From Candidatus Rokuibacteriota bacterium (GTDB taxonomy: Bacteria > Methylomirabilota > Methylomirabilia > Rokubacteriales > CSP1-6), in contig JAHFDK010000013.1 in the NCBI GenBank assembly GCA_023249095.1, positions 28-64,027 of the forward strand: DNA of 64,000 nt, read 5' to 3'. A program made the translations under genes and the position numbers. This document shows, one piece after another, positions 2,893 through 45,711 of the stretch. Position 1 is the stretch's first letter. Each line of letters begins with the position of its first letter. The notes under the pieces were generated by a model. It worked only from the letters and a program-made list of their open reading frames with translations, was not told the origin of the DNA and searched no databases.

Positions 2893-3663
2893 CTAGGGAA
2901 GTGCGGCGACCGTGACGAGGCGGCCGCGATTGCCCTTGCGGTACGAGTACAGCAGCTCCGGATGGCACGCCGTGCAAAGTCGCGGATTGTCGATTGACGT
3001 CGGGGCCACCCCGGCGTCGCTCAAGAGGGTCTCGTTGGCCGCCCACAGATCGAGCATGACGTGCCCGGCGCGCGAGGGCCTGACCCACGTCGTCCAGCGC
3101 TCCCCGAACGCGCGCGCCAGCTCTGCCGTGACCGGCTCGTCGACCTCGTAACAGCACGGGCCGATTGATGGCGCAATCGCGACACGGAGCGAGGAGGCGC
3201 GTCCGCCCAGCTCTCCGATCGCCCGCACGGCCGCCTGCGTCGCGCCGCGCACCGTCCCGCGCCAGCCGACGTGGGCGAGGCCCAGGATCCGCGCTCCGGG
3301 ATCGTAGAAGACGATCGCGAGGCAGTCCGCGGTGAAGATCGCAAGCGGCACTCCGCGCTCGGCGGTGACGAGGATGTCGACCGAGCCCGCGAATCCCCCG
3401 CCCGCGGGCGCGCGCGCCGTCTCGGCGCCGTGCACCTGGCGCGCGTAGCTCACCCGGCCGATCTCGAGCCCGGCTCCGCCCAAGATCGCCGCGGCCTCAA
3501 ACCGAAACGGCGCTCTCGGCGCCTCAGGGGAAATCGGCTCGGCGAACGAAGCGATCCCCGGACAGTGCCGCGTCGTCGTCGCATGCGGCAACCCCACGTC
3601 GCTGAGCGACGGAAACGTAAAGTACTTCGCCGGCTCTCCGTGCGGACGTAGCTCCGAAGTCAT
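2893..3663 (-). CDS. pgeF: Peptidoglycan editing factor PgeF (YfiH/DUF152, laccase-domain protein)
   Basis: 'ARQVHG', 'TADCLAIVFYDP', 'GLAHVGWRG' and 'IGPCCYEV' are the YfiH/PgeF His/Cys/His signature. Confidence 0.85.
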   Translation of the reverse strand: MTSELRPHGEPAKYFTFPSLSDVGLPHATTTRHCPGIASFAEPISPEAPRAPFRFEAAAILGGAGLEIGRVSYARQVHGAETARAPAGGGFAGSVDILVTAERGVPLAIFTADCLAIVFYDPGARILGLAHVGWRGTVRGATQAAVRAIGELGGRASSLRVAIAPSIGPCCYEVDEPVTAELARAFGERWTTWVRPSRAGHVMLDLWAANETLLSDAGVAPTSIDNPRLCTACHPELLYSYRKGNRGRLVTVAALP

Positions 3664-3702
3664 CTCTTCTCGGTGTGACGCTTCTCAGCGTGACAAGCCG
3701 AC

Positions 3703-3879
3703 GGGCCGCGGGGGAGCGGGCGGGGCGGGTGGCGGGCGAGGTCGATGAGACCCGTTCCCTCCAAGCGACGACGGACGCATCCGCGCATGATGGAGCCCAG
3801 CCGCGAAGGGTTTGCGGACGCGTGCCGCGTGGTCGAGCGACCCCGCCCGCCACCCGCCCCGCCCGCTCCCCCGCGGCCC
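3703..3879. repeat. Long GC-rich inverted repeat: 42-nt arms (36 perfect, then 1 mismatch, then 5) around a 93-nt spacer, abutting the ftsZ stop codon
   Basis: Left arm 3703-3744 is 'gggccgcgggggagcgggcggggcgggtggcgggcgaggtcg'. The reverse complement of 3838-3879 is 'gggccgcgggggagcgggcggggcgggtggcgggcggggtcg'. Both were read directly from the sequence. Confidence 0.9.
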
Positions 3880-5039
3880 TAGTCCGCTTGGCGCCGGAGA
3901 AAGGCGGGGACCTCGAGGTCGCCGTCGCCGATCTCGCCCTCGGCTTCGGCCCGCGAGTCGGCGAACCGCCGTCGCCACGGCGTCGACGCCGCCGCCGGGA
4001 CCGAGCGCGAGGCGCGCGGCAGGTCGACCACCTTGCCGCCGACGCCGACCGCCTCCTTCTTCTCGGCAAAGCCCGTCGCGATCACCGTCATCCGGACCTC
4101 GTCCGAGAGCTGCGGATCGATGACAGCGCCGAAGATGATGTGCGCCTCCTCGTGCGCGGCTTCCTGGACGATCCGCGCCGCCTCCTCGACTTCGTGGATG
4201 GACAGGTCGGCGCCGCCGGTGAAGTTGATCAGGATCCCGCGCGCACCCTCGATCGACGTCTCGTCGAGGAGCGGGCTCGCGACCGCTTTCTGCGCGGCGT
4301 CGAGGGCGCGGTTCTCCCCCTTGCCGGTGCCCGTGCCCATCATCGCCAGACCCATGCCCGACATGATCGTGCGGACGTCGGCGAAGTCGAGGTTGACGAG
4401 CCCGGGCACCAGGATCAGATCCGAGATCCCCTGCACCGCCTGCTGGAGCACAGAGTCGGCCACGCGGAATGCGGCGATCAGCGGAGTGCCGCGGTCCACG
4501 ACGGAGAGCAACCGCTGGTTCGGGATCGTGATGAGCGTGTCCACGACGGCCCTGAGCGCCTCGAGCCCGGCCTCGGCCTGGAGCATCCGCTTCCGGCCCT
4601 CGAAGGTGAAGGGCTTGGTCACCACCGCGACCGTCAGGATCCCCAGATCCTTCGCGAGCGACGCGACCACGGGCGCGGCACCGGTGCCGGTCCCGCCGCC
4701 GAGCCCCGCCGTGATGAAGACCATGTCGGCGCCGCTCAGGAGACGCGTGATCTGATCGGGATCCTCCTGCGCGGCGTTCCGACCGACTTCCGGGTTCGAG
4801 CCGGCGCCCAGGCCTTGCGTGAGCTTCGTTCCGAGCTGGAGCTTGACCGGCGCCGGCGAGGCCTGCAGCGCCTGGACATCGGTGTTGGCCACGATGAACT
4901 CGACGCCCGTGAACTGCGCCGTCATCATGCGGCTCACTGCATTACCGCCGCCCCCGCCGAGGCCGAACACCTTGATCTTCGCGGCCTGCACTGGGTGCTC
5001 GAGTTCGAAGAGCGGGCGCCGCGTGCGATCCTTCTCCAT
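3879..5039 (-). CDS. ftsZ: Cell-division GTPase FtsZ
   Basis: '[17 protein letters not shown]', '[18 protein letters not shown]' and the C-terminal peptide '[13 protein letters not shown]'. Start set at ATG 5039, preceded by 'gaggaggcaga' (SD), rather than the track start at 5153. Confidence 0.95.
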
Positions 5040-8111: not shown

Positions 8112-9505
8112 GTCGACCTCCCAGTCAGCGAGTCCGCATTCAGGCGTTTCAGCAGCTCCGGGCCGAGCTGGCTCACGTCGCCGGCGCCGAGCGTGATCAC
8201 GAGGTCGCCCGTCCGGGCGATCTCGCAGAGGTGCTCGACGATGCGCAGCCGGTCGCTCCCGAGGTAGGTGGTGTCGCGATGGCCGTGCGACCGGATCGCC
8301 GCGGCGAGATCCTCGGCGGTGACGCCGGGGATGGCCGCTTCCCCGGCGGCGTAGATGTCCATCACGATCAGCGCGTCAGCCAGGTTGAACGCCGTGAGGA
8401 ACTCCTGGCGCAGGTGCAGGGTGCGGGTGTAGCGGTGCGGCTGGAACACCGTCACGACCCGGCAGTCGAACCCGGCCTTGGCGGCGGCCAGCGTCGCCAC
8501 GATCTCGGCGGGGTGATGGCCGTAGTCGTCGACCACCGTAACACCGCGGGCACGACCAAGGATCTGGAAGCGGCGCTGGACGCCCGAGAACCCGGCCAGC
8601 GCCTTCTGGATGGTGGGGAACGGGATCTCGAGATCCAGGCCGACGCCCACCGCCGCGAGGGCATTGAGCACGTTGTGGCGGCCGGGGATCTGGAGCGCGA
8701 GCTCGCCGAGCAGGCTCCCGCGCTGGAAGACCTCGAAGCGGCTCGTCATGCCCGCCAGGCGCAGGCGTCGCGCCACGAGGTCGGCGCCCGACTCCAGGCC
8801 GTACGTGATGATCCGCTTCTCGATTCTGGGAATGAGCAGCTGGATGTTCGGCTGATCGAGGCAGAGGACGGCCGACCCGTAGAAGGGGACTCTGTTCACG
8901 AACGCGACGAAGGCGTCGCGGATCGCGTCGAGACTCCCGTAGTGATCGAGATGCTCGGCGTCGACGGTCGTGACGACCGCGATCGTCGGCGCGAGCTTCA
9001 GGAACGAGCCATCGGATTCGTCGGCTTCGGCGACCAGGTACTCCCCCTGGCCGAGCCGGGCGTTCGAGCCGAGGCTCGTCACCCGGCCCCCCACCACGAT
9101 CGTCGGATCGTAGCGGCCTTCGGCGAGCACGGCCCCGACCATCGAGGTGGTCGTCGTCTTGCCGTGGGTGCCGGCGACCGCGATGCCGTACTTGAGACGC
9201 ATCAGCTCGGCCAGCATCTCGGCGCGGGGAATCGTCGGGATCTGGCGCTGGCGCGCGAGCTGGACCTCGACGTTGTCGCGCGAGACGGCCGACGAGTAGA
9301 CGACCACGTGGGCGCCCTCGACGTGCGCCGCCTGATGGCCGATGAAGATCTTCGCGCCGAGCTCGGCGAGCCGCTCGACAGCGTCGCTGCGTTTCTGGTC
9401 GGAGCCGGTCACCCGGTAGCCGAGGTTCAACAAGATCTCGGCGATCCCGGACATGCCGCTGCCGCCGATCCCGACGAAGTGGATCTGCTGGTAGCGCTTA
9501 AACAT
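8105..9505 (-). CDS. murC: UDP-N-acetylmuramate--L-alanine ligase
   Basis: '[29 protein letters not shown]', '[15 protein letters not shown]' and '[10 protein letters not shown]'. Confidence 0.95.
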
Positions 9506-10571
9506 GGGCGTGCTGGGAAATATTCAAGAGTACTCCCGTCGAGACCATCGTGACGAGCAGGGCGGAGCCGCCGAAGGAGATGAAGGGCAGGGGCAGCCCC
9601 TTCGTCGGCAACAGGCCCGTCACGACCCCAAGGTTCACGAGGGTCTGCGTCGCGATCAACACGGTGATCCCGAGCGCCAGGTAGCCGCCGAAGGGGTCGG
9701 GCGCCCGCAACCCGATCCGGAGCCCGCGCCAGACCAGAACGATGAAGAGCGCGACGATGGCCGCGGCGCCCACGAAGCCCAGCTCCTCGGCGATGATCGC
9801 GAAGATGAAATCCGTGTGCGATTCCGGGAGGTAGAAGAGCTTCTGGCGGGACGCGCCGATGCCCTGACCGAAAATCCCGCCGTTGCCGAGCGCGAGCCAC
9901 GACTGGATGATCTGGAACCCGCTGCCGCGCGGGTCCGACCACGGGTCGAGGAACGCGACGATGCGCCGCAGCCGGTACGGCGCCGCCCAGATCGCCACCA
10001 CGAGCGGCGGCAACGCGAGCGCGAGGACGAGGCCCAGGTGCCGGACTCGGCCGCCCGCGAGGAACAGGAGCGTGAACGTGAGGGTGATGAGCGTCAGACA
10101 ATTGCCGAGGTCCGGCTGCGCGAGGACGAGCGCGGCCAGAAGGCCGGCCACCGCGAGCGGCGGCACGAGCCCGCGGCGGAGCTCGGCGATCGCCTCGCCC
10201 TTGCGCGCGAGAAAGGCGGCGAGATAGAGCACGAGCGCGAGCTTGGCCAGCTCCGCCGGCTGGAACGACACGGGCCCGAGCCGGATCCAGCGGCGCGTGC
10301 CGTTGATCGCCTGACCGAGCGGCGAGACCAGCACCAGCACGAGGAGCACGCCCGCGAAGATCAGGAGCGGGAGCACGAACTCTTCCAGACGATGGTAGTC
10401 GAGGCGGATCGCCATCCATAGGCACCCGGCGCCGAGCAGGGCCCAGAACACCTGCTTCTTGAGAAAGAAGTACGGGTCGTGGAAGCGGTCGGCCGCCACG
10501 ATCGCGCTCGCGGAGTAGACCATCACCACGCCCACCGAGAGGAGGACGATCGCGATGCCGAACAGCCACAC
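9498..10571 (-). CDS. ftsW: SEDS-family peptidoglycan polymerase FtsW
   Basis: Polytopic membrane protein with '[25 protein letters not shown]', '[17 protein letters not shown]' and '[21 protein letters not shown]'. GTG start. It overlaps murC by 8 nt. Confidence 0.9.
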
Positions 10572-35007: not shown

Positions 35008-35478
35008 TTAGACGCCGCGCCAGAGGCCGCGGCCGGCGTCGCGGGCCTCGCGCTGTAGCTTCACGAAGAGCTCCTGGTGCCTGACGTTCGGGGGGACGGT
35101 CATCACCTGGGCGTAGCCCAGGCGCAGCAACTCGGCGTTCACCATCACGTCGTCGACCCAGACGTAGGCCAGGAGCCGCCCGTACTGGTCCCGCGTCCGG
35201 ACGTCCAGCTCGAGCCGCACGCGCCTGCCCCCCACCAGGCGCCTGTTCGTCTCGGCCGCCTCGCGACCTCCGGGTTCCTCACCTTTGGTCGGGTGGTGTA
35301 TCTCCGGCGTGTTCATGCCGATGTAGCGGATCTTCTCCACGCGGTCGCCGAGCTTCACGTAGATCGTGTCGCCGTCCACGACGCGGATCACAGTGCCTTC
35401 GACCGGCTGGCCCTGGGCGGCCGGAGCCAGGACGAGGAGCGGCAGAAGCATGAGGGGAAGGTGCCGCCGGAGCGCCAC
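35008..35478 (-). CDS. Secreted thermonuclease (staphylococcal-nuclease fold)
   Basis: Signal peptide 'LPLMLLPLLVLAPAAQG'. Also 'VIRVVDGDTIYVKLGDRVEKIRYIGMNTPE', 'GREAAETNRRLV' and 'DQYGRLLAYVWVDDVMVNAELLRLGYA'. Confidence 0.85.
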   Translation of the reverse strand: MALRRHLPLMLLPLLVLAPAAQGQPVEGTVIRVVDGDTIYVKLGDRVEKIRYIGMNTPEIHHPTKGEEPGGREAAETNRRLVGGRRVRLELDVRTRDQYGRLLAYVWVDDVMVNAELLRLGYAQVMTVPPNVRHQELFVKLQREARDAGRGLWRGV

Positions 35479-35853: not shown

Positions 35854-36393
35854 TCAAGGTCGGCGGAGCCGTCCGAGGGCGCGCCGGGCTCTCCGGGCCT
35901 TTTTGGAAAGACGACGGGGGTTGCCGCGCTTGTCCAGTACGGGCTCGGCGTCTGAGTCGGCGTCTTTTGCCGCGGGGTTGGCTGCAGCGGGGTCTTCCGT
36001 TGGCGCGGACGGGCTGCCGTGGAGTGGCAGCGCTTCCAGAAATTGGTCGGCCGTCAGGGCGGCGCAGCCGGCCCGGCGGGCCGCGTCCTGGATCTTCCGG
36101 TCGGAGCTGACGACGACCGCGCCGCTCTTCCACTGGCGCGCGAGTCGCATGAGCTCGTCGTCGGCCGTCAGCGGCGGCCGCGAGAAGATCACACGGATCC
36201 GGCCCGCTGACGGGGCGCCGCCGGAGACTCGCGCGCCGTCGAACACGACCGTGAACTCGTCGCGTGGCCCCCGGCGAGCCCGCGCCAGCAGGTGCAGGAG
36301 CGCCCGGCGTCCCGCCTCGAGGCTCTCGGCCTCGCGAGCCCGGAGCTCCGGGCTCCGGCGGATGACGTTATAGCCATCGATGAGCCAGCGCAT
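35854..36393 (-). CDS. YacP-like NYN-domain protein (predicted RNase)
   Basis: 'MRWLIDGYNVIRRSPEL', 'FTVVFDG' and 'VVVSSDRKIQDAARRAGCAALTADQF' match the YacP/Rae1-type NYN pattern. The basic C-terminal tail is Arg/Lys-rich. Alternative GTG start at 36414. Confidence 0.7.
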   Translation of the reverse strand: MRWLIDGYNVIRRSPELRAREAESLEAGRRALLHLLARARRGPRDEFTVVFDGARVSGGAPSAGRIRVIFSRPPLTADDELMRLARQWKSGAVVVSSDRKIQDAARRAGCAALTADQFLEALPLHGSPSAPTEDPAAANPAAKDADSDAEPVLDKRGNPRRLSKKARRARRALGRLRRP

Positions 36394-36403
36394 CGGAGCC
36401 GGA

Positions 36404-37573
36404 TCACCCCCCACGCCGATAGCAGAGCTTCGTTCCTTCTTGAAGGCCGAGGCTCACGAGGCGCAGAACGCGGCGGGGATATAGAAGCCAGGACGGAGTC
36501 ATGGGATAGTGCCGCGCCAGGACGTGTCGCTGTGGGAAGCCGAGCTCCGCCAGGTACGCTGCTTTCCCAATCACCCCAGGGATCGAGAGCGCCACCAGCA
36601 GCTCGCCAGGAGTCTCCACTCCTCTTCGCCTCGCGACGAGGCGAATGAACGCCCGCTCCAGCGGGCCGAGGGCAGGCAGCGCTCCGCGCACCGCGTCCGG
36701 CAGCTCCAGACGACCCAACAGCCTGTCGAGGACAGAGACGGCGTAAGCGAGGGGTCGCAAGGCCCCCGAGGCTCGAGCTTGCCCCAGCAGAGACGGCCAG
36801 GGCGCCGCCCGCAGCACGAGGGCGAGGTCAACCAGCCAGATCAGACGAGAGTATGAATGCTTGAGCGCGTGCACGACAAGCTGGAGCCGCAGGTGGACCG
36901 GTGAGAGGACGAGCGTCGTCGTGTCGCCTGGCTCCAGTGGCGTGGCCTCGCGCCAGAGGGCGGCAGGGTCCAGGCGAAAGGCGCGCGCCTTGCGGCCGAC
37001 CCATTCGCTCCCGACGATCTCCGTGTGGAGGTCGAACGAGACCACGCCTCGAGAGAAGAACGGAGATGACGGCGAGACGGGCTCGTAGCCGCGGTGCCGC
37101 AGCCATCCGGTTACCGAGGGCAGGTCCGACGGGCGCAGGAGCAGATCGATGTCGCCCAGGGGGCGCAGGCCCACGTGACCCCGATACTCGTCGTCGAGCA
37201 ACGCCGCACCCTTCAACACGATCACCTGGCGGCGGTTTTGGCGCAACATCGCGCGCAGCGCCGCCAGCTCGGACAGGGCCGACATGTTGCTGGCGGCGAC
37301 AGCCCGCGTCGCGGCACGCCAGCGATCGAGGTGTGGGACCAGACCCTCGTGCTGTGCCAGGCCCTCGAGCGCTCGGGCGACGAGTCCTGTGACCCCCTCG
37401 CGCTCCGCCTGCTCGAGGAGCGCGGACCATTGCAGGCCGCCGCGGAGAAGCCCGACCAGCTCGTCCTCGATGCTAGCGCCGAGGAACCACCGGACGGCCC
37501 CCACGAGCACCTGCGTCTCGCGCGAGAGCGCGATCTCGGCTGCGGGCAAGACCGCTCCCCTCACTCCCTGCAA
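36404..37573 (-). CDS. Uncharacterised nucleotidyltransferase family protein (NTP_transf_5-like)
   Basis: 'VIVLKGAALLDDEYRGHVGLRPLGDIDLLLRPSDL' and 'DLHTEI' match the family that accompanies HPrK-like kinases in lasso-peptide clusters. The start codon is uncertain (TTG 37573 or GTG 37564). Confidence 0.65.
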   Translation of the reverse strand: MQGVRGAVLPAAEIALSRETQVLVGAVRWFLGASIEDELVGLLRGGLQWSALLEQAEREGVTGLVARALEGLAQHEGLVPHLDRWRAATRAVAASNMSALSELAALRAMLRQNRRQVIVLKGAALLDDEYRGHVGLRPLGDIDLLLRPSDLPSVTGWLRHRGYEPVSPSSPFFSRGVVSFDLHTEIVGSEWVGRKARAFRLDPAALWREATPLEPGDTTTLVLSPVHLRLQLVVHALKHSYSRLIWLVDLALVLRAAPWPSLLGQARASGALRPLAYAVSVLDRLLGRLELPDAVRGALPALGPLERAFIRLVARRRGVETPGELLVALSIPGVIGKAAYLAELGFPQRHVLARHYPMTPSWLLYPRRVLRLVSLGLQEGTKLCYRRGG

Positions 37574-38514
37574 TGCTCGAGGATCGCCGCCTGCACCGCG
37601 GGTAGTCGAGACAGATCGCGGCGGAAGGCGAGCCGGTAGACGAGCGAGGGGCGCGCCGCGACGCGGCCGATCGAGTCGAACTCGTCGCGCAGACGGGTTC
37701 GGTCGTCGAGATCCAGCCGGTAGGTGTGCTTGACGAGCTCGATGAACGCTTCACGCGGCGCGAGGGCCGTGATGCTGACGGCGCAAGGGCGCGCGGTCGG
37801 CTCCGGGTGGCCGAGGACGTACATGCGTCGCACGGGCACGGGCTCCCGGCTGAACGGCCACGGGCCCCCACCGACGGAGATCTGCTGCTTGCCGCCCTGC
37901 GGCGCGACCTCGTGCACCGCGAGGCCACCGGTCCCGAGCGCCGCCAGCACGTCGGGCCACAGCCGGATCTCGGGGTAGCTGGGAACGCCCGCCAGCGTGC
38001 TGCCGTCCTCGACGAGCAGGAGGCCGTCGTCCGTGAGGAGCGGGAACGATCGCCGCACGAAGCTCGTGCTCAGCGTCGACTTGCCCTGGCCGGCCGCGCC
38101 GAGAAAGGCGATGGCGCCGTGCGGGGTCGCGATGGCGCTCGCGTGCAGGACGAGCCGGCCCCGCTGGCTCAGCGCAAGAGGCAGCACCTGGGCCAGGAAG
38201 AGATGCGCGACGAGCCGCCCCCGCGTGCCTCGCCGCGGGACACAGCGCACCTGCTGCCCGTCGCGCGACACCAGGAAGACGGCGCGACCGGGAAACCTCA
38301 CGAGGAAGCCCGATCGACAGCGGCCGATGGTCAGGGAGATCGTCCCATTCGGCAGGCGAAGCGTATGGCGACGACCGATCAATCGTTCCCTGATCGGGCC
38401 GCGACGCCGCTCGAGCACGCAATCGAGCGGCTTGCCGGCGACCTCAGGGAGCCCCGGCAGCGGCACGTTGCTCGCGACGACGAGCCCGAACGCGGAATAC
38501 GCGGTCACGCCCAA
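37561..38514 (-). CDS. HPr-kinase-C-like serine kinase (lasso-cluster type)
   Basis: 'LVLHASAIATPHGAIAFLGAAGQGKSTLSTSF' (P-loop) and 'LLTDDGLLLV' resemble the HprK C-terminal domain. The N-terminus 'AYSAFGLVVASNVPLPGL' is typical of the RiPP-associated subgroup. Confidence 0.7.
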   Translation of the reverse strand: MGVTAYSAFGLVVASNVPLPGLPEVAGKPLDCVLERRRGPIRERLIGRRHTLRLPNGTISLTIGRCRSGFLVRFPGRAVFLVSRDGQQVRCVPRRGTRGRLVAHLFLAQVLPLALSQRGRLVLHASAIATPHGAIAFLGAAGQGKSTLSTSFVRRSFPLLTDDGLLLVEDGSTLAGVPSYPEIRLWPDVLAALGTGGLAVHEVAPQGGKQQISVGGGPWPFSREPVPVRRMYVLGHPEPTARPCAVSITALAPREAFIELVKHTYRLDLDDRTRLRDEFDSIGRVAARPSLVYRLAFRRDLSRLPAVQAAILEHCRE

Positions 38515-39672
38515 CTACACCGCGTAGCGCGAGACGACCTCGGTGACGAAGGCGGCGGCTTCGGCGGGCGACTGGAAGATGGCTGGGTGGCGACGATGGA
38601 CCTCGCGCTCGATGTCGCCCAGGGCCCGCCGACCATCGCAGAGCTCGAGGACGGACCGGCGCGCCTGGCCCCAGGGAGAGAGCCGCGGCACGAACTGGAG
38701 ATCGGTCCGCTCCAGGTCTTCTTTGCAGAGGAGCATTCCCTGGAAGGTGGAGTGAGCGAACCGCCCTTTGCTCGCCGGGTCTGGTCCGCGCCCGGCGCGA
38801 CCGTCCCTTACGTCGACGGTCCAGCTCACGACGCCGGCGGCGGGAAGGATCCGCAGCCTCACGCCGATCTGGTCGTGCTCTTCGAGCGCGACCGGGCGGG
38901 CGATCGGAAAGAAAACCTGTCTCCGGAAGATCGGCCGCGCCGCGAGCGGGGAGTTGGTCAGGGTGACGCTCGGCGAGAGCTGCGCCTCGAACCAGCCGCC
39001 GATCCCGTGAAGGGCCCCGGGCCGCCCCGCCACGAGGACGACCTCGGCGCCCAGAGCGGCCGTCGACGCCGTCGAGAGCCTGACCGAGATCGCCCGCGCC
39101 GGAGCTCCGAGCATGTGTGCCGGGTCGAACCTGGCCGGATAACCGGTGTTCGCGGCGATCGCGAGCGCCGGGTGGAAGTCGTAGCCGGCGGGCGTCCGCC
39201 CCCAAAAATCCACCTGCCCGAAGAGCTCGCCACTTTCCACGGGCGCCACGACCAGCCCGATCTCGCCAGGAATCATCACCCCGTCCGGCTTCAGGAAACG
39301 CGCCCGAGCGTCTGCAAAGTACTCGAGGATGCCCGACTCGAAGCCAAAGCGCCCGATCTGGTCGGCGAGGACCACGTCGACTCGCTCTGGCAGCTCCACG
39401 CGGGTCGAGAGTCCCTTGATGTGCGTGATGCGATCCTGAAATCCGTTGACCCAGGCGATTTCCCGGGCGAGGCCGATAATCGGCCCCTCGTCGACAGCGT
39501 AGACACGCTTGGCCCCGGCGCGGCAGGCCATGAGTCCGAGAATCCCGGTGCCCGCGCCGAGATCCAGCACCACGTCGCCGGGCGTGACAACTTCATCGAT
39601 CGCCTGCCGGAAGGCGGACACGCGGACCGCGTCGGCGAGATATTGACGATGCTCGTCGAGGACGAGCGACAT
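38515..39672 (-). CDS. Class I SAM-dependent methyltransferase of PRMT type with a C-terminal PqqD/RRE-like segment
   Basis: 'DAVRVSAFRQAI', 'VVLDLGAGTGILGLMACRAGAKRVYAVD', 'VDVVLADQIGRFGFESGILEYFADARARFLKPDGVMIP' (PRMT motifs I, post-I and a double-acidic loop as D...E). The C-terminal 'RLSPWGQARRSVLELCDGRRALGDIEREVHRRHP...AAAFVTEVVSRY' resembles the helical part of PqqD. Confidence 0.75.
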   Translation of the reverse strand: MSLVLDEHRQYLADAVRVSAFRQAIDEVVTPGDVVLDLGAGTGILGLMACRAGAKRVYAVDEGPIIGLAREIAWVNGFQDRITHIKGLSTRVELPERVDVVLADQIGRFGFESGILEYFADARARFLKPDGVMIPGEIGLVVAPVESGELFGQVDFWGRTPAGYDFHPALAIAANTGYPARFDPAHMLGAPARAISVRLSTASTAALGAEVVLVAGRPGALHGIGGWFEAQLSPSVTLTNSPLAARPIFRRQVFFPIARPVALEEHDQIGVRLRILPAAGVVSWTVDVRDGRAGRGPDPASKGRFAHSTFQGMLLCKEDLERTDLQFVPRLSPWGQARRSVLELCDGRRALGDIEREVHRRHPAIFQSPAEAAAFVTEVVSRYAV

Positions 39673-39709
39673 CAGACCGCCGGCACCGGCATGCTGGCGC
39701 GCCGCTCCA

Positions 39710-39865
39710 TCAGAGGCACGCCATCATCATGGGGCCCCCGTCGCCGAGGCTCGCCGTGCCCGAATGCGTCAGCTTCTCGACGGGTCCGTACTCGATCAAT
39801 CGGGGCTTCACGTAAGGCTTCTTCGAGGGTCCGAGCGTCACGTCCTGAGTCGGCTCCTCCTTCAT
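39710..39865 (-). CDS. Lasso-peptide precursor (51 aa): leader of 34 aa plus predicted core SGTASLGDGGPMMMACL
   Basis: 'MKEEPTQDVTLGPSKKPYVKPRLIEYGPVEKLTH|SGTASLGDGGPMMMACL'. The leader fits YxxPxLxxxGxxxxxTx exactly (Y-17, P-14, L-12, G-8, T-2). Asp sits at core position 8. A strong SD 'gaggag' lies 5 nt before the ATG, 17 nt after the cyclase stop. In the track it is the last 51 codons of the 373-aa ORF 39710-40831. Confidence 0.75.
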   Translation of the reverse strand: MKEEPTQDVTLGPSKKPYVKPRLIEYGPVEKLTHSGTASLGDGGPMMMACL

Positions 39866-39882
39866 AATGTCTCCTCGTTGGC

Positions 39883-41772
39883 CTACGCCGCGCGTGACGC
39901 GGGAAACATGGTCCTGTACCACTGTTCTGTCGCGAGGATCATCCAGAGGGGTCCAAGACATCCGCGGTCGCCACGATGCAGGCGCCGGTACATCTCCCTG
40001 ACCCGCTCGCCGCGCACGAACCCGTCGGCCTCCAGGCGGAGCCGGGCGAACGCCTCGGCGGCGCCCTCGCGCTCGAGCGACGCAGCGTAAAGGTACGTGA
40101 AGTCGCCTTTGGTCGTGCGGCGTGCCACGGAGGAGGGAAGAAGATCTCCCGCCGCTCGGCGCAGGATGAACTTCGTCTCGGTGCCGCGCCAGCGCTGCTC
40201 CTCGGGCAGCGCCAGGGCGAACTCGATGAGCCGCCGGTCGTTGAAGGGGAACCGGCTCTCCATGGACCGGCGCCTCTCGAACCGGTCCACCATTTCGTAC
40301 TCGGCGGCGCTCCAGCCGCTCTGCAGCTGGCGGTGGATGGCGCGCTGGGCGAACGTCGGGAACCGAGGCGTGGCGACGTCCCGCGCGAGCCGTTCTTGGA
40401 GGCCGACGCGCCGGGCGAAGTCGGGCGCGATCCAGTCCGGGACGTCCCAGCTTCGGAAGCGCCGCACGAGCCGTTTGGCCGGGCGCGGAGCCAGCGGCAT
40501 CACACACCATCTGATTGCATCCGCCAGGCCGACCGGCGGGCCGCCCAGCAAATTCAAGGAGCGAATATCGTCGCGGACCCGGCGCGCGAGCGCGACCAGA
40601 CGCACCCGGCGGAGCAGATCGGCGCAGTGAGCAGTGTCGCCGGTAAGCCACTCGTCGCCGCCGTAGCCCCAGAGTGCGGTCCGGGCGCCACGTCGATGCG
40701 CCTCGGTGAGCAGGAGTCCCCAGGGGTGCGTGTTGGGGAGATCCGGAAAGTCCCGCAGGTCGGCGACCTGCTCGGCCAGCGAGGGCGAGACCGCGTCGTC
40801 GGCCCTCACGTGGCGCACCGGCAACTCCCACATCCTCGCAACGTCGTCGACCCAGCCTCGCTCGTCCGCGTCCGCGTGCGTGAAGTCGAGGGAGTACGCC
40901 TCGAATCCCCGTCCGGGTGCGTGGCCGTCACGAGCAAGCCGGGCGGCGACGCCGACGATCGACGAAGAGTCGAGCCCCCCGCTCAGGAACACCGCGACGG
41001 GGGTGACGCTCCGGAGCCGACAGTGCACCGCCTCGCGGAAGATCTCGATGAAGTGCTCCGCGTACTCGTCGTCCGAGCGATACCGGATCTCGCGGCGCGG
41101 ATCGACGTCGAAGTAGCGCGCCGTGCGGACGCGACCGTCCTCGACGATCAGGACGTGGCCCGGCGCCAGGCGCAGGATCCCACGATAGAGGGTCTCCTCG
41201 AGGTCGACGAGGCGACTGCTCAAATACTCACCCACGACCCCCTCGTTCGGTTCTGGGCCGAGCGGCAGGTTGTCGAGCAGCTGGCGCAGCTCCGAGCCCC
41301 ACATGAAGGTCTGGCCGTGGGTGCAGTAGTAGAACGGCCGGATCCCGAGGGGGTCGCGGGCGCAGAAGAGCCGGCGGCGCCGGCGGTCCCAGATCGCGAA
41401 CGCGAAGTCGCCGACGATCCGTGAGGCGCAGCCGTCGTCCCAGAGGGCGTAGGACTGCAGCACGAGCTCGGCGTCGGTGTCAGTCCGGAGATGGACGCCC
41501 GCGGCTCGCAGCCATGCGGCGAGCTGAGCACGATTGTCGACCCGGCCGTCGAGCACGAGGCAGAGGGTTTCGCTCTCGTCGAGCAACGGCTGCTTCTCAC
41601 CCAGCGACTCCGGCGTCGTGCGCGAGATGCGGTGCCCGAGGCCCGCAGACCCGTCCGTCCAGTAGCCCTCGCCGTCCGGGCCGCGGTGCGCGACCGCCGC
41701 AGTCATCTTCCTGAGAAGCGTGACGTCGACCGGACGACCGTGGGGGGCGTACACGCCGGCGAGACCGCTCAC
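39883..41772 (-). CDS. Lasso-peptide cyclase (asparagine-synthetase B homolog, C protein)
   Basis: 'DGRVDNRAQL', 'GDFAFAIWDRRRRRLFCARDPLGIRPFYY' and the PP-loop 'VFLSGGLDSSSIV'. The N-terminus 'VSGLAGVY' lacks the Cys nucleophile, as in lasso cyclases. The GTG start at 41772 overlaps the B2 stop (GTGA). Confidence 0.9.
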   Translation of the reverse strand: MSGLAGVYAPHGRPVDVTLLRKMTAAVAHRGPDGEGYWTDGSAGLGHRISRTTPESLGEKQPLLDESETLCLVLDGRVDNRAQLAAWLRAAGVHLRTDTDAELVLQSYALWDDGCASRIVGDFAFAIWDRRRRRLFCARDPLGIRPFYYCTHGQTFMWGSELRQLLDNLPLGPEPNEGVVGEYLSSRLVDLEETLYRGILRLAPGHVLIVEDGRVRTARYFDVDPRREIRYRSDDEYAEHFIEIFREAVHCRLRSVTPVAVFLSGGLDSSSIVGVAARLARDGHAPGRGFEAYSLDFTHADADERGWVDDVARMWELPVRHVRADDAVSPSLAEQVADLRDFPDLPNTHPWGLLLTEAHRRGARTALWGYGGDEWLTGDTAHCADLLRRVRLVALARRVRDDIRSLNLLGGPPVGLADAIRWCVMPLAPRPAKRLVRRFRSWDVPDWIAPDFARRVGLQERLARDVATPRFPTFAQRAIHRQLQSGWSAAEYEMVDRFERRRSMESRFPFNDRRLIEFALALPEEQRWRGTETKFILRRAAGDLLPSSVARRTTKGDFTYLYAASLEREGAAEAFARLRLEADGFVRGERVREMYRRLHRGDRGCLGPLWMILATEQWYRTMFPASRAA

Positions 41773-42278
41773 GGCGCGCGCTCGCGGGGGGCGATGGTTG
41801 CGGACGTGGGCAGCCAGGAGGGCATGCGGACGAGCACGGCGTAGCTCGCGGGCCCGGGGTCCGCGCCGACGACGGCCCCGCCGAGCTCCACCCAGGCGTG
41901 GCCCTCGAGCGGCCCGCGGGCCTTCGTGACGCCAACGACCAACTGCGCCGGCAGCCCGCGTCGCTTGAGGAGCGACAAGACGACCAGCGCCTTCGCGAGG
42001 CACGTGGGCCTCGGCCGCCAGCAGCGGGCGGCGACCTCCACGAGCCAGGCCGTGCGCGGCGCGCCACGGGGATAGTCCTCGGCGCAACGACGGCGTGCCG
42101 GGGACAGCGCCTCGACAAGAGCGAGCGCTCGCCGGAGTCCGACGAGCCGCAGACCAACGCTGACGGGCGGCAGGAGGACCAGCGCGCGGGCGAGGAGCGC
42201 CCAGTCGTCTCGCGGAAGTCTCGCAACGCCGAGGAGCGCACGCGTGAACCGGGCGCTACGCGGACTTCGCGGCGACAC
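41769..42278 (-). CDS. Lasso-peptide leader peptidase B2 (transglutaminase-like Cys protease)
   Basis: 'RPTCLAKALVVLSLLKRRGLPAQLVVGV' and 'EGHAWVELGG' give the Cys/His pair of the Transglut_core3 family. Confidence 0.8.
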   Translation of the reverse strand: MSPRSPRSARFTRALLGVARLPRDDWALLARALVLLPPVSVGLRLVGLRRALALVEALSPARRRCAEDYPRGAPRTAWLVEVAARCWRPRPTCLAKALVVLSLLKRRGLPAQLVVGVTKARGPLEGHAWVELGGAVVGADPGPASYAVLVRMPSWLPTSATIAPRERAP

Positions 42279-42549
42279 GCGTCAGTCCTTTCGCGCACAG
42301 ATGGTCGACGAGCTCGAGTAGATCACGTTCGAGCACGGCGGGAGCGGCGTCGTACTCCGAGCGCAGCACCGCGAATACCGTGCCGAGGGATCCGTGATCT
42401 TCGATGAGCCGCCAGGTTCGCGCGCCCACGTCGTCGAGCCCGAAATAGACTCCCGTCTCGAGATTGAGGATCACAATCTCGCCGTCCAGCTCGCGGAACG
42501 TGATGTCAGGATTGATCGTCACCACGGAGGCCAGCGTGGACCTGCTCAT
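42256..42549 (-). CDS. Lasso-peptide B1 protein (PqqD-family RiPP recognition element)
   Basis: 'ITFRELDGEIVILNLETGVYFGLDDVGARTWRLIEDHGSLGTVFAVLRSEYDAAPAVLERDLLELVDHLCAKGL' is a canonical PqqD/RRE. ATG 42549 (SD 'gaggaa') is preferred over ATG 42585. Confidence 0.8.
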   Translation of the reverse strand: MSRSTLASVVTINPDITFRELDGEIVILNLETGVYFGLDDVGARTWRLIEDHGSLGTVFAVLRSEYDAAPAVLERDLLELVDHLCAKGLTRVAAKSA

Positions 42550-42569
42550 TGGCACCGTTCCTCGCACCG

Positions 42570-42598
42570 AATCTTCCACACTCATGGATTGAAATCAA
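42570..42598 (-). promoter_or_regulatory. Candidate promoter of the lasso operon
   Basis: Minus strand: TTGATT (42598-42593), 17 nt, AAGATT (42575-42570). This would place the upstream ATG 42585 inside the spacer and supports the 42549 start. The match is weak. Confidence 0.3.
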
Positions 42599-42750
42599 GG
42601 GAGCGCGCGCCACCGTGTCATCGGCATCTCGTGTATGGCACGATGGGCAGACTGTGCAGGGCGGGAGGATCACGCGCATCGTTGAGCCCGGGCTCGGTCC
42701 GCAGGGGCGGTCCGCGTCGTGGACGTGTGGAGCGATTTGATGGCCACGCC

Positions 42751-44367
42751 ATGACGGCGCCAACGCGATGGCCCGAGGCCCGCGCGACGCGTGGGCTCGT
42801 CGCCACGCCGCACGCGCTCGCCTCCGAGGCCGCATTGGCGGTCCTGCAGCGCGGTGGCAACGCCGTGGACGCGGCCATCGCCGCCGCGACCACCGTCGCC
42901 GTCGTCTACCCGCACATGAACGGTGTGGGTGGTGACAGCTTCTGGTTGATCTACGACGGCCGGCGTCACACGCTCCGCGCGCTGAACGCCGCAGGTCGCT
43001 CGGCCGCGGCCGCCGACCTCGACACCTACCGCGCGCGGTTCGGTTCGGCGATCCCCGTGCGCGGCGGGGCGGCGGCGCTGACCGTTCCGGGGGTCGTATC
43101 CGGCTGGTGGGAGGCTCACGTCCTGAGCCGCGACGTGCTGGACTCACCGATCGACTGGCACACCCTCCTCGAGGACGCGATCGCCCACGCCCGCGACGGC
43201 TTTCCGCCGTCGCCGGGCCAGCGGCGTGAGACCGCGGACGCCGCCGACCTCTTCGGCGGCGCGGCGCCCGCCGAGTTGCGGGCCCCGCTCTGGCGCATCT
43301 ACCATCCCGCGCTCCTGGCGCGCGAGCGCTTCGTGCAGGCGGACCTCGCGACGACCCTCGAAGAGATCGCGCGGGGTGGCGCCGACGCGTTCTATCGCGG
43401 CCCGCTCGCCAGGCGGATCGCGCTGGGCGCGGCGGCTGCCGGCAGCCCGCTGACGGGCGACGATCTGGCCCGGCACCAGGCCGAGTGGGTGGACCCGCTG
43501 CGCGTTCCTTACCGGGGCGGCGAGGCGGTGAGCTGTCCGCCGCCGACCCAGGGCTTCGCCGCGCTCGCGATTCTGTCGTTGCTCGAGGGCTTCGACGTCT
43601 CCGCCCTCGGCGAGGCCGACTACGTCCACCTCGTCGTCGAGGCGACGAAGCTCGCGTTCGAGGACCGCGACCGTTACCTCGCCGACCCGACGTTCTCCGC
43701 GGTACCCGTCGAGCGCTGCCTGGATCCGGCGCGCCTCGCCGAACGCCGCCGGGGGATTTCGCGACGGGTGGCGATGCGCGCGGCCGGCGCGCCCGCGAGG
43801 GGCGACACGATCGCCATCGTCACGGCCGACGCACACGGGAATGCGGTGTGCCTGATCCAGAGCCTCTACTGGGAGTTCGGCTCGGGGGTGATCGCCGGGG
43901 ACACCGGCGTGCTCCTGCAGAACCGGGGCGCGTTCTTCTCGCTCGACCCGGCGCACGTGAACCGACTGGCGCCACGCAAGCAGCCCGCGCACACGCTCAT
44001 CCCGTCGATGTATCTGGTGGACGGCCGCCCGCGCCTCGTCTACGGCACGATGGGCGGCGAAGGGCAGCCGCAGACACAGGCGGCGCTCGTGACGCGGATG
44101 GTCGATCGGGGCCTCGGCCCGCAGGCGGCGGTCGAAGCTCCGCGCTGGCTCTTCGGGCGCACGTGGGGCGAGGCGACGCAGTCGCTCAGGCTGGAGGCGC
44201 GGTTCGGTGACGAAGTGACCCAGTCGCTCCGGGAGCGCGGTCATGACGTGAGCGTCGTCGAGGACTGGAGCGATCTGATGGGCCATGCCCAGGTCATTCG
44301 TGTCGATCCCGACGGGCTCAGCGGCGGCTCCGACCCGCGCGCCGACGGCGCCGCGCTCGGAGTTTGA
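42751..44367 (+). CDS. ggt: Gamma-glutamyltransferase family protein
   Basis: 'GGNAVDAAIAAATTVAVVYPHMNGVGGDSFWLIYD', the nucleophile context 'RGDTIAIVTADAHGNAV', and 'GTMGGEGQPQTQ'. Start moved to ATG 42751. Confidence 0.9.
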   Translation: MTAPTRWPEARATRGLVATPHALASEAALAVLQRGGNAVDAAIAAATTVAVVYPHMNGVGGDSFWLIYDGRRHTLRALNAAGRSAAAADLDTYRARFGSAIPVRGGAAALTVPGVVSGWWEAHVLSRDVLDSPIDWHTLLEDAIAHARDGFPPSPGQRRETADAADLFGGAAPAELRAPLWRIYHPALLARERFVQADLATTLEEIARGGADAFYRGPLARRIALGAAAAGSPLTGDDLARHQAEWVDPLRVPYRGGEAVSCPPPTQGFAALAILSLLEGFDVSALGEADYVHLVVEATKLAFEDRDRYLADPTFSAVPVERCLDPARLAERRRGISRRVAMRAAGAPARGDTIAIVTADAHGNAVCLIQSLYWEFGSGVIAGDTGVLLQNRGAFFSLDPAHVNRLAPRKQPAHTLIPSMYLVDGRPRLVYGTMGGEGQPQTQAALVTRMVDRGLGPQAAVEAPRWLFGRTWGEATQSLRLEARFGDEVTQSLRERGHDVSVVEDWSDLMGHAQVIRVDPDGLSGGSDPRADGAALGV

Positions 44368-44490: not shown

Positions 44491-45711
44491 TCAGCTCAGC
44501 GGAAGCTCGCGCTCGAAGACGCTGAAGGGCGAGCGGCGCGCGGCCTCGAGCGCTTTCCTGATCTGCGGCTCGCCCCGCCCGGCGCCCTGCCGCAGCAGTG
44601 TCTCGAAGAACCCGACGTAGAACGCGTCCGGCTCGACGACCACGGCCAGGCGCGCGCGCATCCCCGGACCCGGAACCTTCATCCGATAAGCCAGGGTCAC
44701 GCTCTGCCCGGGCCGGAGCCGCGTGTCGAACGCTTCGCGCGACAGGTCGAGGGCCACCTCGCGCCCGACGATTTTTTCCTGCCGGCTTCCGGCCAGCACC
44801 TGCCCCGCCCCGTCCACCAGCTCCGCGCTCAGGACGACCCGCGGCGTGACGTAGGTCGGAAACGCGTGGCCAACGCGCGTGCTGGTCACGCGTAAAGTGA
44901 CGGCCGCGACGTCGCCGGGACGGTAACGCGCGGCCCCCGCCGCCGCGGTGATCGTGAGCCCCGAGCGCACCATGTCGGCGTCGTGGATGCCGCGCCACAG
45001 ATGCCGCCGCTCCGGCATGTGGCAATCCTGGCACTGGACGCCCTCACGGGCGAACCGGCTCGCCTTCCATTCGTTGTAGGTGTTCTCGAGCAGCTTGCCG
45101 TTCAGCGCGAACCCGTCGGGTGCGAACTGGTGACAGCTGCCGCAGAACTCGGACTTGAGGAAGGCGGGCGTGCGCGTGACCCCGTCGTGAGGCAGCGTCT
45201 GCCGTGGGACGCCGCTCGCGATCGAGCCGTCACGCCGGGGCGGGCCGAAGCGCTGATGGCCCCGCACGTGGCAGCCGGCGCACGGCACGCCCTTGGCGCG
45301 GAGCGAGCCGTCGTGCGCGGGGTTGGGCCGCACCTCGTTGCCCTCAGCGACCAGCGGCGATTGCTCGGCGAGCGGCGCGTGACACGTGAGACATCCGAGC
45401 GCCGACCGCGGATCGCCCTCGAGCATCTCCACGAGCTGACCCTCGAGGCCCGGGCCCGTCGCCGCGGCATGCGTGCTCTCGCGCCAGTCGGCGAACTGCG
45501 CGGAGTGACAGGTCCCGCACGCCTCGGGGTGGAGCGAGGCCTCCAGCGGCGAGAAGCGCGCGGGCGGCGGGCCTTGAGGCGCCAGCGGCGGGCGCCAGTG
45601 CCGCCGGAGAAAGTCCTGGATCGCATCGGCGCCGACGGCGGCGGTGCCGAGCAGCACGGCCAGCGTCGCCGCGCCCGCGGTGCGAAGGGGCAGTCGCATC
45701 GACGGAAGCAT
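44491..45711 (-). CDS. Secreted pentaheme c-type cytochrome
   Basis: Signal peptide, then five CxxCH motifs (CGTCH, CLTCH, CAGCH, CGSCH, CQDCH) in the first 260 or so residues, followed by a heme-free C-terminal domain of about 140 aa. Confidence 0.85.
   Translation of the reverse strand: MLPSMRLPLRTAGAATLAVLLGTAAVGADAIQDFLRRHWRPPLAPQGPPPARFSPLEASLHPEACGTCHSAQFADWRESTHAAATGPGLEGQLVEMLEGDPRSALGCLTCHAPLAEQSPLVAEGNEVRPNPAHDGSLRAKGVPCAGCHVRGHQRFGPPRRDGSIASGVPRQTLPHDGVTRTPAFLKSEFCGSCHQFAPDGFALNGKLLENTYNEWKASRFAREGVQCQDCHMPERRHLWRGIHDADMVRSGLTITAAAGAARYRPGDVAAVTLRVTSTRVGHAFPTYVTPRVVLSAELVDGAGQVLAGSRQEKIVGREVALDLSREAFDTRLRPGQSVTLAYRMKVPGPGMRARLAVVVEPDAFYVGFFETLLRQGAGRGEPQIRKALEAARRSPFSVFERELPLS

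Follow-up and report, generated by a model that had tools for sequence, protein, structure and literature searches.

We identified a gene in a 64,000-nucleotide stretch of DNA from a Candidatus Rokuibacteriota bacterium (contig JAHFDK010000013.1; the whole stretch is called the window below) that is very probably a genuine lasso precursor gene, with the boundary between leader and core after His34. The gene, designated A, comprises 51 codons at positions 39865-39710 of the minus strand. It belongs to a tightly packed minus-strand operon with the gene order B1-B2-C-A-MT-K-NT, in which B1, B2 and C encode the lasso machinery, MT a methyltransferase of the protein arginine methyltransferase (PRMT) fold, K a kinase and NT a nucleotidyltransferase. 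The precursor itself is ordinary. Standard profile models and gene-calling programs detect it, and lasso clusters are a routine find in metagenome-assembled genomes (MAGs) from soil. Judged from the sequences of its relatives, the new element appears to be a conserved Met-rich/Cys-Leu tail that co-varies with the PRMT-fold methyltransferase. In the open-access literature we found neither this lasso subfamily nor a lasso cluster with a PRMT-fold enzyme described, and lasso peptides in Rokubacteria were not described there beyond generic counts of biosynthetic gene clusters.

The precursor gene and its conservation

The cyclase gene C ends with a TAG codon at 39885-39883. The 17 nt that follow it, GCCAACGAGGAGACATT (39882-39866), contain a Shine-Dalgarno sequence, GAGGAG (39876-39871), and a 5-nt spacer, ACATT (39870-39866), directly ahead of the precursor's own ATG at 39865; the stop codon is the TGA at 39712-39710. 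The start codon, the Shine-Dalgarno sequence and its spacing read exactly as they had been described in an initial annotation of the window, and the translation of the 51-codon frame, MKEEPTQDVTLGPSKKPYVKPRLIEYGPVEKLTHSGTASLGDGGPMMMACL, is identical to the peptide reported there. The predicted leader, MKEEPTQDVTLGPSKKPYVKPRLIEYGPVEKLTH, is encoded by the first 34 codons (39865-39764), and the predicted core, SGTASLGDGGPMMMACL, by the 17 codons that follow (39763-39713).

The precursor shares its reading frame with a 373-aa open reading frame (ORF) at 39710-40831, and the initial annotation described it as an unannotated gene hidden in the tail of that spurious ORF. At the three codon positions, the GC content of the last 51 codons is 0.58/0.45/0.88, similar to that of the flanking genes, and that of the upstream 322 codons read in their own frame is 0.86/0.72/0.53. 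Because the third-position value is 0.88 in the last 51 codons and 0.53 upstream of them, only the tail of the 373-aa ORF is coding. The upstream part is an out-of-frame shadow of the cyclase gene. The larger ORF is therefore spurious as described, but the "hidden" position of the precursor is a trait of the mechanical ORF track, and the gene cannot be called unannotated. Gene calls had already placed the identical 51-aa product in a protein collection (sources NCBI, Logan and ENA), and the orthologous small ORF had been called on every related contig that we inspected. Public calls for two orthologues, P0027 (83 aa) and P0030 (70 aa), are too long because their starts were placed upstream, in the overlap with the 3' end of the cyclase gene, the same artefact as the 373-aa ORF.

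Sequences equivalent to the Shine-Dalgarno sequence were found at seven orthologous loci and are all purine-rich (GGGGAG, GAGGAA, AAGGAG, AGGGAG, GGAGAG). In a codon-level comparison of eight orthologues, all of which keep a purine-rich Shine-Dalgarno sequence, the ratio of nonsynonymous to synonymous substitution rates (dN/dS) was 0.08-0.36 in 24 of the 27 pairs; the three exceptions all had a dS below 0.1. The small ORF is under purifying selection by these values. A scan of the cluster for promoters and terminators gave nothing above the expectation from shuffled sequences. A regulatory hairpin occurs between A and the next gene in some lasso operons. We rejected such a hairpin for the spacer between A and MT, where the folding energies in the window and at four orthologous loci were no better than those of shuffles (z -0.7 to +0.6).

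A search with the single sequence returned 34 small proteins with 57-90% identity in the best local alignment. In 33 close relatives there is no variation at M1, Y18, P21, L23, the segment EYGPVEKLTH, G36, G41 and G44, and almost none at D42. A wider profile, built with three distant members, detected at least 787 relatives at E <= 0.01. The strict leader pattern discussed below, including Thr at position -2, was found in register in 124 of the 125 small-protein relatives examined. Residue -1 of these 124 is H, Q, R or A, and 120 of them have a Cys-Leu C-terminus. Core position 8 is acidic in 119, and the other five have their acidic residue at position 9. The conservation of Thr-2 and of the acidic residue, on which the initial annotation had staked its prediction, was thus confirmed, as was the presence of a conserved small ORF at this position: it is found between the cyclase gene and the gene that follows, wherever enough sequence of a related locus is available.

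In a genome scan, members of the close family turned up in five MAGs of Candidatus Rokuibacteriota (AR22, AR27, AR28, AR31 and AR34). The order B1-B2-C-A-MT-K-NT is kept in these MAGs and in about 80 metagenome contigs, and A is always located between C and the methyltransferase gene. A homologous precursor also occupies this slot beside methyltransferases that are only about 60% identical to that of the window, for example at the loci L013, L015 and L017, where the leaders end in LTQ, LTQ and LTR and are followed directly by the cores GASGAVGDAGVMNMPPCL, SGASAGTDGIRMMVACL and GGAASVSSDHGANMMSTMPCL, respectively. One methyltransferase at this level of identity is labelled Acidobacteria (P0161). 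Conservation of the precursor in the same slot reaches relatives that are only about 40% identical in protein. The eight-residue pattern EYGPVEKL is not specific by itself. A match to it in an Alphaproteobacteria locus (L012, 8001-8045) was rejected as a chance occurrence in an unrelated frame with no lasso genes nearby.

Lasso machinery, predicted cleavage site and predicted ring

The three genes upstream of A encode the proteins expected to process its product. B1 (42585-42256, minus strand) encodes a 109-aa PqqD-like recognition element for peptides that are made by ribosomes and then modified post-translationally (RiPPs). It matches Pfam PqqD with an E value of 1e-15 and also matches the NCBIfam lasso_PqqD models, under their "exception" cutoffs. 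B2 (42278-41769, minus strand) encodes a transglutaminase-like leader peptidase of 169 aa (Pfam Transglut_core3, E 5.6e-22), which contains the motifs CLAKAL and HAWV and scores 74.7 bits against NCBIfam NF033537 (lasso_biosyn_B2), for which the cutoff is 33. C (41772-39883, minus strand), whose GTG start overlaps the B2 stop, encodes an asparagine synthetase-like lasso cyclase of 629 aa. The cyclase has Asn_synthase (E 4e-49) and GATase domains, and its top NCBIfam match is lass_lactam_cya (E 2e-131). Its N-terminus, VSGLAG, is without the catalytic amidotransferase Cys2.

The cluster thus contains each of the features by which a B1/B2/C system is recognized: a PqqD-like recognition element, a transglutaminase-like Cys protease and an asparagine synthetase homologue without an N-terminal catalytic Cys. 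The precursor is a 51-aa peptide encoded on the same strand as the peptidase and cyclase genes and adjacent to them, with its leader residues in register, a small residue at core position 1 and an acidic residue at position 8. By these criteria it would be a class II-type lasso precursor with split B1/B2.

When the peptide is cut after His34, Tyr, Pro, Leu, Gly and Thr are at positions -17, -14, -12, -8 and -2. All five positions of the leader pattern YxxPxLxxxGxxxxxTx are therefore in register, as the initial annotation had noted. The peptide also passes the NCBIfam model NF033521 (lasso_leader_L3, "lasso RiPP family leader peptide-containing protein") with 21.7 bits against a cutoff of 19, over residues 18-36; this model covers a 20-residue leader motif only, and the Met-rich/Cys-Leu core lies outside it. 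The -17/-14/-12 register rule was used to predict the processing of BsfA, a precursor with a similar leader, and was then biochemically confirmed for that peptide (PMC10368454). We assign cleavage to the bond after His34 because this rule fixes the site.

The pathway proposed here is inferred from these relationships, from the cleavage site and the ring to the threading and each of the tailoring steps. The YxxPxL region of the 34-aa leader would be bound by the PqqD-like B1, and B2 would cut after Thr-2/His-1. The cyclase C would then link the amine of Ser1 to the side chain of Asp8, giving an eight-residue macrolactam ring with the tail GGPMMMACL threaded through it. The linear core has a predicted neutral monoisotopic mass of 1597.661 Da, and for the dehydrated core a mass of 1579.650 Da is predicted. 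MT, the kinase and the nucleotidyltransferase probably decorate the peptide.

The 17-aa core of the window peptide, with Ser1, a Met run, a single Cys and a C-terminal Leu, was considered unusual in the initial annotation. These features turned out to be the conserved signature of a large family and not an oddity. Among 109 unique cores, position 1 is Ser in 52, Thr in 26 and Gly in 25 (Ala also occurs), and position 2 is Gly in 98. Position 8 is Asp in 98 and Glu in seven, and the remaining four cores have their acidic residue at position 9. Exactly one Cys is present in 105 of the 109, and the commonest tail residue is Met (282 of 1,063). In one orthologue (L039, ~6301-6456 on contig Ga0184633_10000280) Asn is in the place of Asp8 (TGSAALGNAGPMMMTCL) in a cluster that is otherwise intact; this sequence may represent a natural D8N variant, a precursor that is no longer functional, or an error of sequencing.

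In lasso peptides with an eight-membered ring, the plug residues are usually Phe, Tyr, Trp, Arg or His. The nine-residue tail GGPMMMACL contains none of these residues and no Lys, its only larger side chains being those of Met12-14 and Leu17, and this is common in the family: 86 of the 109 unique cores are without an aromatic residue and 83 are without Arg or Lys. A real precursor of this kind could give rise to a branched-cyclic lariat or a heat-labile lasso, or to a lasso that is locked only by methylation or phosphorylation. We consider such a product unlikely, although a lasso that is labile or locked by tailoring is a realistic possibility. The full B1/B2/C set is conserved with this type of tail in hundreds of clusters, which argues for a functional product of canonical lasso biosynthesis, and both the tail length (9-10 residues in 79 of the 109 cores) and the Met run are under constraint.

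A different boundary and ring register would result if, for example, the leader were cut after Ser35, to leave a seven-membered ring between Gly1 and Asp7. Known lasso peptides start most often with Gly, and Gly36 is more conserved in the family than residue 35, with Gly in 98 of the 109 cores at the former and Ser, Thr, Gly or Ala at the latter. This register would, however, move the Thr to position -3. Only the cut after His34 places Tyr, Pro and Leu at -17, -14 and -12 together with Thr at -2, and the register rule is the one that was validated biochemically for BsfA (PMC10368454). A shifted boundary is accordingly quite improbable, and we retain the Ser1-Asp8 ring as the predicted structure.

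The bare leader pattern occurs six times in the six-frame translation of the window, compared with 2.3 occurrences expected from shuffles. With about two chance matches in 64 kb, we did not accept the motif as stand-alone evidence; it is the position, the profile match and the conservation that make the precursor significant. Within the cluster, the motif is present in no other ORF. The idea that 39865-39710 is a chance ORF or non-coding spacer, with the true precursor elsewhere, is effectively refuted by the third-position GC content of 0.88, the conserved Shine-Dalgarno sequence, dN/dS values well below 1, the match to a curated profile, the same-slot conservation in distant relatives and the lack of another candidate in the cluster.

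Probable tailoring enzymes and the Met-rich tail

The gene directly downstream of A, MT (39672-38515, minus strand), encodes a candidate tailoring enzyme of 385 aa, an S-adenosylmethionine (SAM) methyltransferase of the PRMT fold. The closest solved structure by sequence is that of PRMT6 (E 9e-30), over residues 7-278, which comprise the Rossmann and beta-barrel domains. The AlphaFold model of MT, with a pLDDT of 81, gave Foldseek TM scores (target-normalised) of 0.75-0.83 to PRMT1, PRMT2, PRMT6 and PRMT8. Like these enzymes, MT has the two domains, its SAM motif I (VLDLGAGTG) is intact, and the first position of its double-E loop is acidic, with an invariant Asp104 in place of the Glu. It differs from them in that the THW loop is absent, with P-I-x-R in its place, and in that the second Glu of the double-E loop lies one residue away from its usual place and varies, with Gly instead in some subgroups. 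Because the THW loop is missing, the double-E loop is altered and most substrate cores contain no Arg, MT is, on sequence grounds, not a canonical arginine methyltransferase.

MT also differs from PRMT1, PRMT2, PRMT6 and PRMT8 in having an extra C-terminal helical domain of about 60 aa. This three-helix domain appears PqqD-like by eye and was considered as a candidate RiPP recognition element fused to the methyltransferase; in the model it consists of three confident helices and weak strands. The C-terminal 99 aa of MT had no Pfam match even at an E value of 10, and hhalign gave a probability of 0.2% for their alignment with B1. In a Foldseek search with a dedicated model of the C-terminus the best E value was 0.58, and PqqD (3g2b, 5sxy) and B1 with its leader (6jx3) were found among non-significant matches only.

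Homologues of MT number more than 1,900. The MT gene directly follows the precursor gene in all 50 of the unique Cys-Leu clusters with informative context. In four clusters MT is missing and the kinase gene directly follows A, and there the tails are without Met and without Cys (...GPTKKP, ...ITAFKPGK, ...GVPRQGKSKK and ...SFQTIETRHH). Loci without MT are L062 (1403-1501) and L063 (2936-3034), and also L083, L085 and L087. In L062 and L063, whose tail is the first of these four, the last 12 leader residues, LVEYGPVEKLTH, agree with the Rokubacteria type; the core likewise opens with SGT and continues to a different tail, for example SGTGRPGDGGPTKKP. These MT-less relatives look like a natural joint loss of the enzyme and the tail motif.

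This co-variation of enzyme and tail is our main evidence that MT acts on the Met/Cys-Leu tail. On the basis of these sequence patterns, the most likely role of the PRMT-fold enzyme is modification of the Met-rich/Cys-Leu tail, for which S-methylation of Cys16 and a methyl ester at the carboxyl group of Leu17 are the leading candidates. Methylation at the C-terminus has a precedent in lassomycin, in which the C-terminal Ile is methyl-esterified. StspM-type enzymes are isoaspartyl-O-methyltransferase-like. StspM, a C-terminal carboxyl O-methyltransferase of the lassomycin type, resembles MT in being a SAM-dependent methyltransferase of a lasso cluster, and it acts on the C-terminus of the linear precursor (PMC8498205); the window enzyme is distinguished from it by its two-domain PRMT fold.

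The two genes after MT encode an HPr-kinase-like peptide kinase of 317 aa (K, 38514-37561, minus strand) and an NTP_transf_5 nucleotidyltransferase of 389 aa (NT, 37573-36404, minus strand; Pfam PF14907, E 8e-44). The kinase was identified by a motif and weak profile matches. It carries the exact sequence H-x14-G-x2-G-x-GKS-x15-DD at residues 124-163, and its NCBIfam matches are to HprK_rel_A (E 2e-7, far below the cutoff) and HprK_rel_B. Mutagenesis of BsfK, the kinase of the bsf cluster, demonstrated that this motif is needed for activity (PMC10368454). BsfK phosphorylates Ser3 of a Gly1-Asp8 lasso precursor while the peptide is linear, in a reaction that is stimulated by B1 and in which Thr is also accepted (PMC10368454).

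The bsf cluster, from Bradymonas sediminis FA350, is the closest characterised system and contains A, B1, B2, C and D together with BsfK and the nucleotidyltransferase BsfN (PMC10368454); the paeninodin/pseudomycoidin and lassomycin clusters are more distant analogies. The window cluster shares with bsf the split B1/B2, the YxxPxL leader, the predicted ring between residue 1 and Asp8, the HPrK-like kinase and the nucleotidyltransferase. The two kinases have the same H...GxxGxGKS...DD motif, and it is by this motif only that their kinship is judged. BsfA has Ile at position -2 and ends in Asp, whereas the window peptide has Thr-2 and ends in Cys-Leu after the Met run. The bsf cluster encodes an ABC exporter and no methyltransferase, whereas the window cluster (36404-42585) encodes a PRMT-fold methyltransferase and no ABC exporter. 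A pair of ABC_tran and ABC2_membrane genes was observed near K and NT in clusters with more distant methyltransferases (L013, 9228-10814; L015, 10857-12439; L017, 10319-11947).

The paeninodin and pseudomycoidin clusters of Firmicutes also employ an HPr-kinase homologue to tailor the lasso precursor, and these earlier lasso kinases act on a C-terminal Ser (PMC8498205). In pseudomycoidin, a nucleotidyltransferase of the PF14907 type adds a hexose to the phosphate (PMC8498205). The window family differs in that A follows C and the precursors end in Leu, so the phosphorylation site must differ from the C-terminal Ser of paeninodin and pseudomycoidin. A C-terminal Ser is absent from the Met-rich family, which leaves Thr3 as our preferred candidate for the modified residue. 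The analogy to BsfK suggests that the most likely target of the HPrK-like kinase is a Ser or Thr within core positions 3-5, here Thr3, and all 109 unique cores have a Ser or Thr somewhere in these positions. The nucleotidyltransferase may elaborate the phosphate.

Several findings weigh against the reading given here of the machinery, the fold or the tailoring steps. The cyclase scores 439.6 bits against a strict NCBIfam "exception" cutoff of 525, and a generic asparagine synthase model was formally passed. With only Met and Leu as plugs for an eight-membered ring, a stable threaded fold does not seem assured. Thr is the first residue in 26 of the 109 cores, and we know of no characterised lasso peptide with Thr1. 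A Ser or Thr is exactly at position 3 in only 79 of the 109 cores. Four clusters that have MT encode cores ending in MMR[I/L/V], without Cys, and one core ends in GMQ. Finally, a variant ending in ...GPMMMP (P0033, 31 contigs; L008, 4663-4761) keeps the MT gene directly downstream, and is a poor fit to a simple model in which MT needs Cys-Leu.

For the MMR[I/L/V] subgroup we also considered an Arg-specific methylation of the penultimate residue. This was rejected, as the methyltransferases of the subgroup regain no canonical double-E loop and have Gly at its second position.

Neighbouring genes and the wider family

A gamma-glutamyltranspeptidase gene (42394-44367, plus strand) is divergent from B1, and genes for a NYN/YacP protein (35854-36414, minus strand) and an SNase-like nuclease (35008-35478, minus strand) are located downstream of NT. 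The transpeptidase gene and both nuclease genes are syntenic with the cluster in the Rokubacteria loci L001 and L004, which is no evidence that they take part in the pathway. Five CxxCH motifs are present in a 406-aa ORF (44491-45711, minus strand) that probably encodes a multihaem c-type cytochrome and is apparently unrelated to the lasso cluster.

Some of the more distant clusters have additional genes. In a groundwater cluster, L015, a gene for an outer membrane protein (OMP) beta-barrel separates B1 from B2, and the kinase is followed by a second PRMT-like methyltransferase paralogue; these extra genes are at 3497-4267 and 9292-10452, and L016 has the same arrangement. Other distant members (L089, 4614-4748; L094, 2498-2626; L070, 6150-6275) end in long tails that contain repeats of the MGMGMGM type, such as GGAGSVTDGGMMGAGMRMGMGMGMRCL. 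Tails of this type are similar to the Met-rich motifs with which copper-handling proteins bind Cu(I). The Met/Cys-rich tails of the family, some of them with MGMGMGM repeats, may make the peptides Cu(I)-binding lassos rather than antibiotics.

The source and record labels in the clade include Methylomirabilota/Rokuibacteriota, Acidobacteria and Nitrospiraceae. NCBI names one member, P0236 (Nitrospiraceae), a "lasso RiPP family leader peptide-containing protein" and another, P0190 (Methylomirabilota), a "hypothetical protein". We propose, as a tentative suggestion that we hold to be possible rather than probable, that these sequences form a large uncharacterised lasso clade of at least 787 predicted precursors, in which a Met-rich/Cys-Leu tail is modified by a PRMT-fold enzyme without an arginine pocket.

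If this is true, methylation of the tail, for example as S-methylation of Cys or a methyl ester of Leu, would be a new form of lasso tailoring, and the tail would be a non-arginine substrate for the PRMT fold. The system would also be a test of how a lasso could be held with only Met and Leu as plugs, and the cluster, at about 6.2 kb, is suited to cell-free or E. coli reconstitution. The window gene anchors an abundant and well-conserved lasso subfamily that seems not to have been studied and comes from soil phyla that are largely uncultured.

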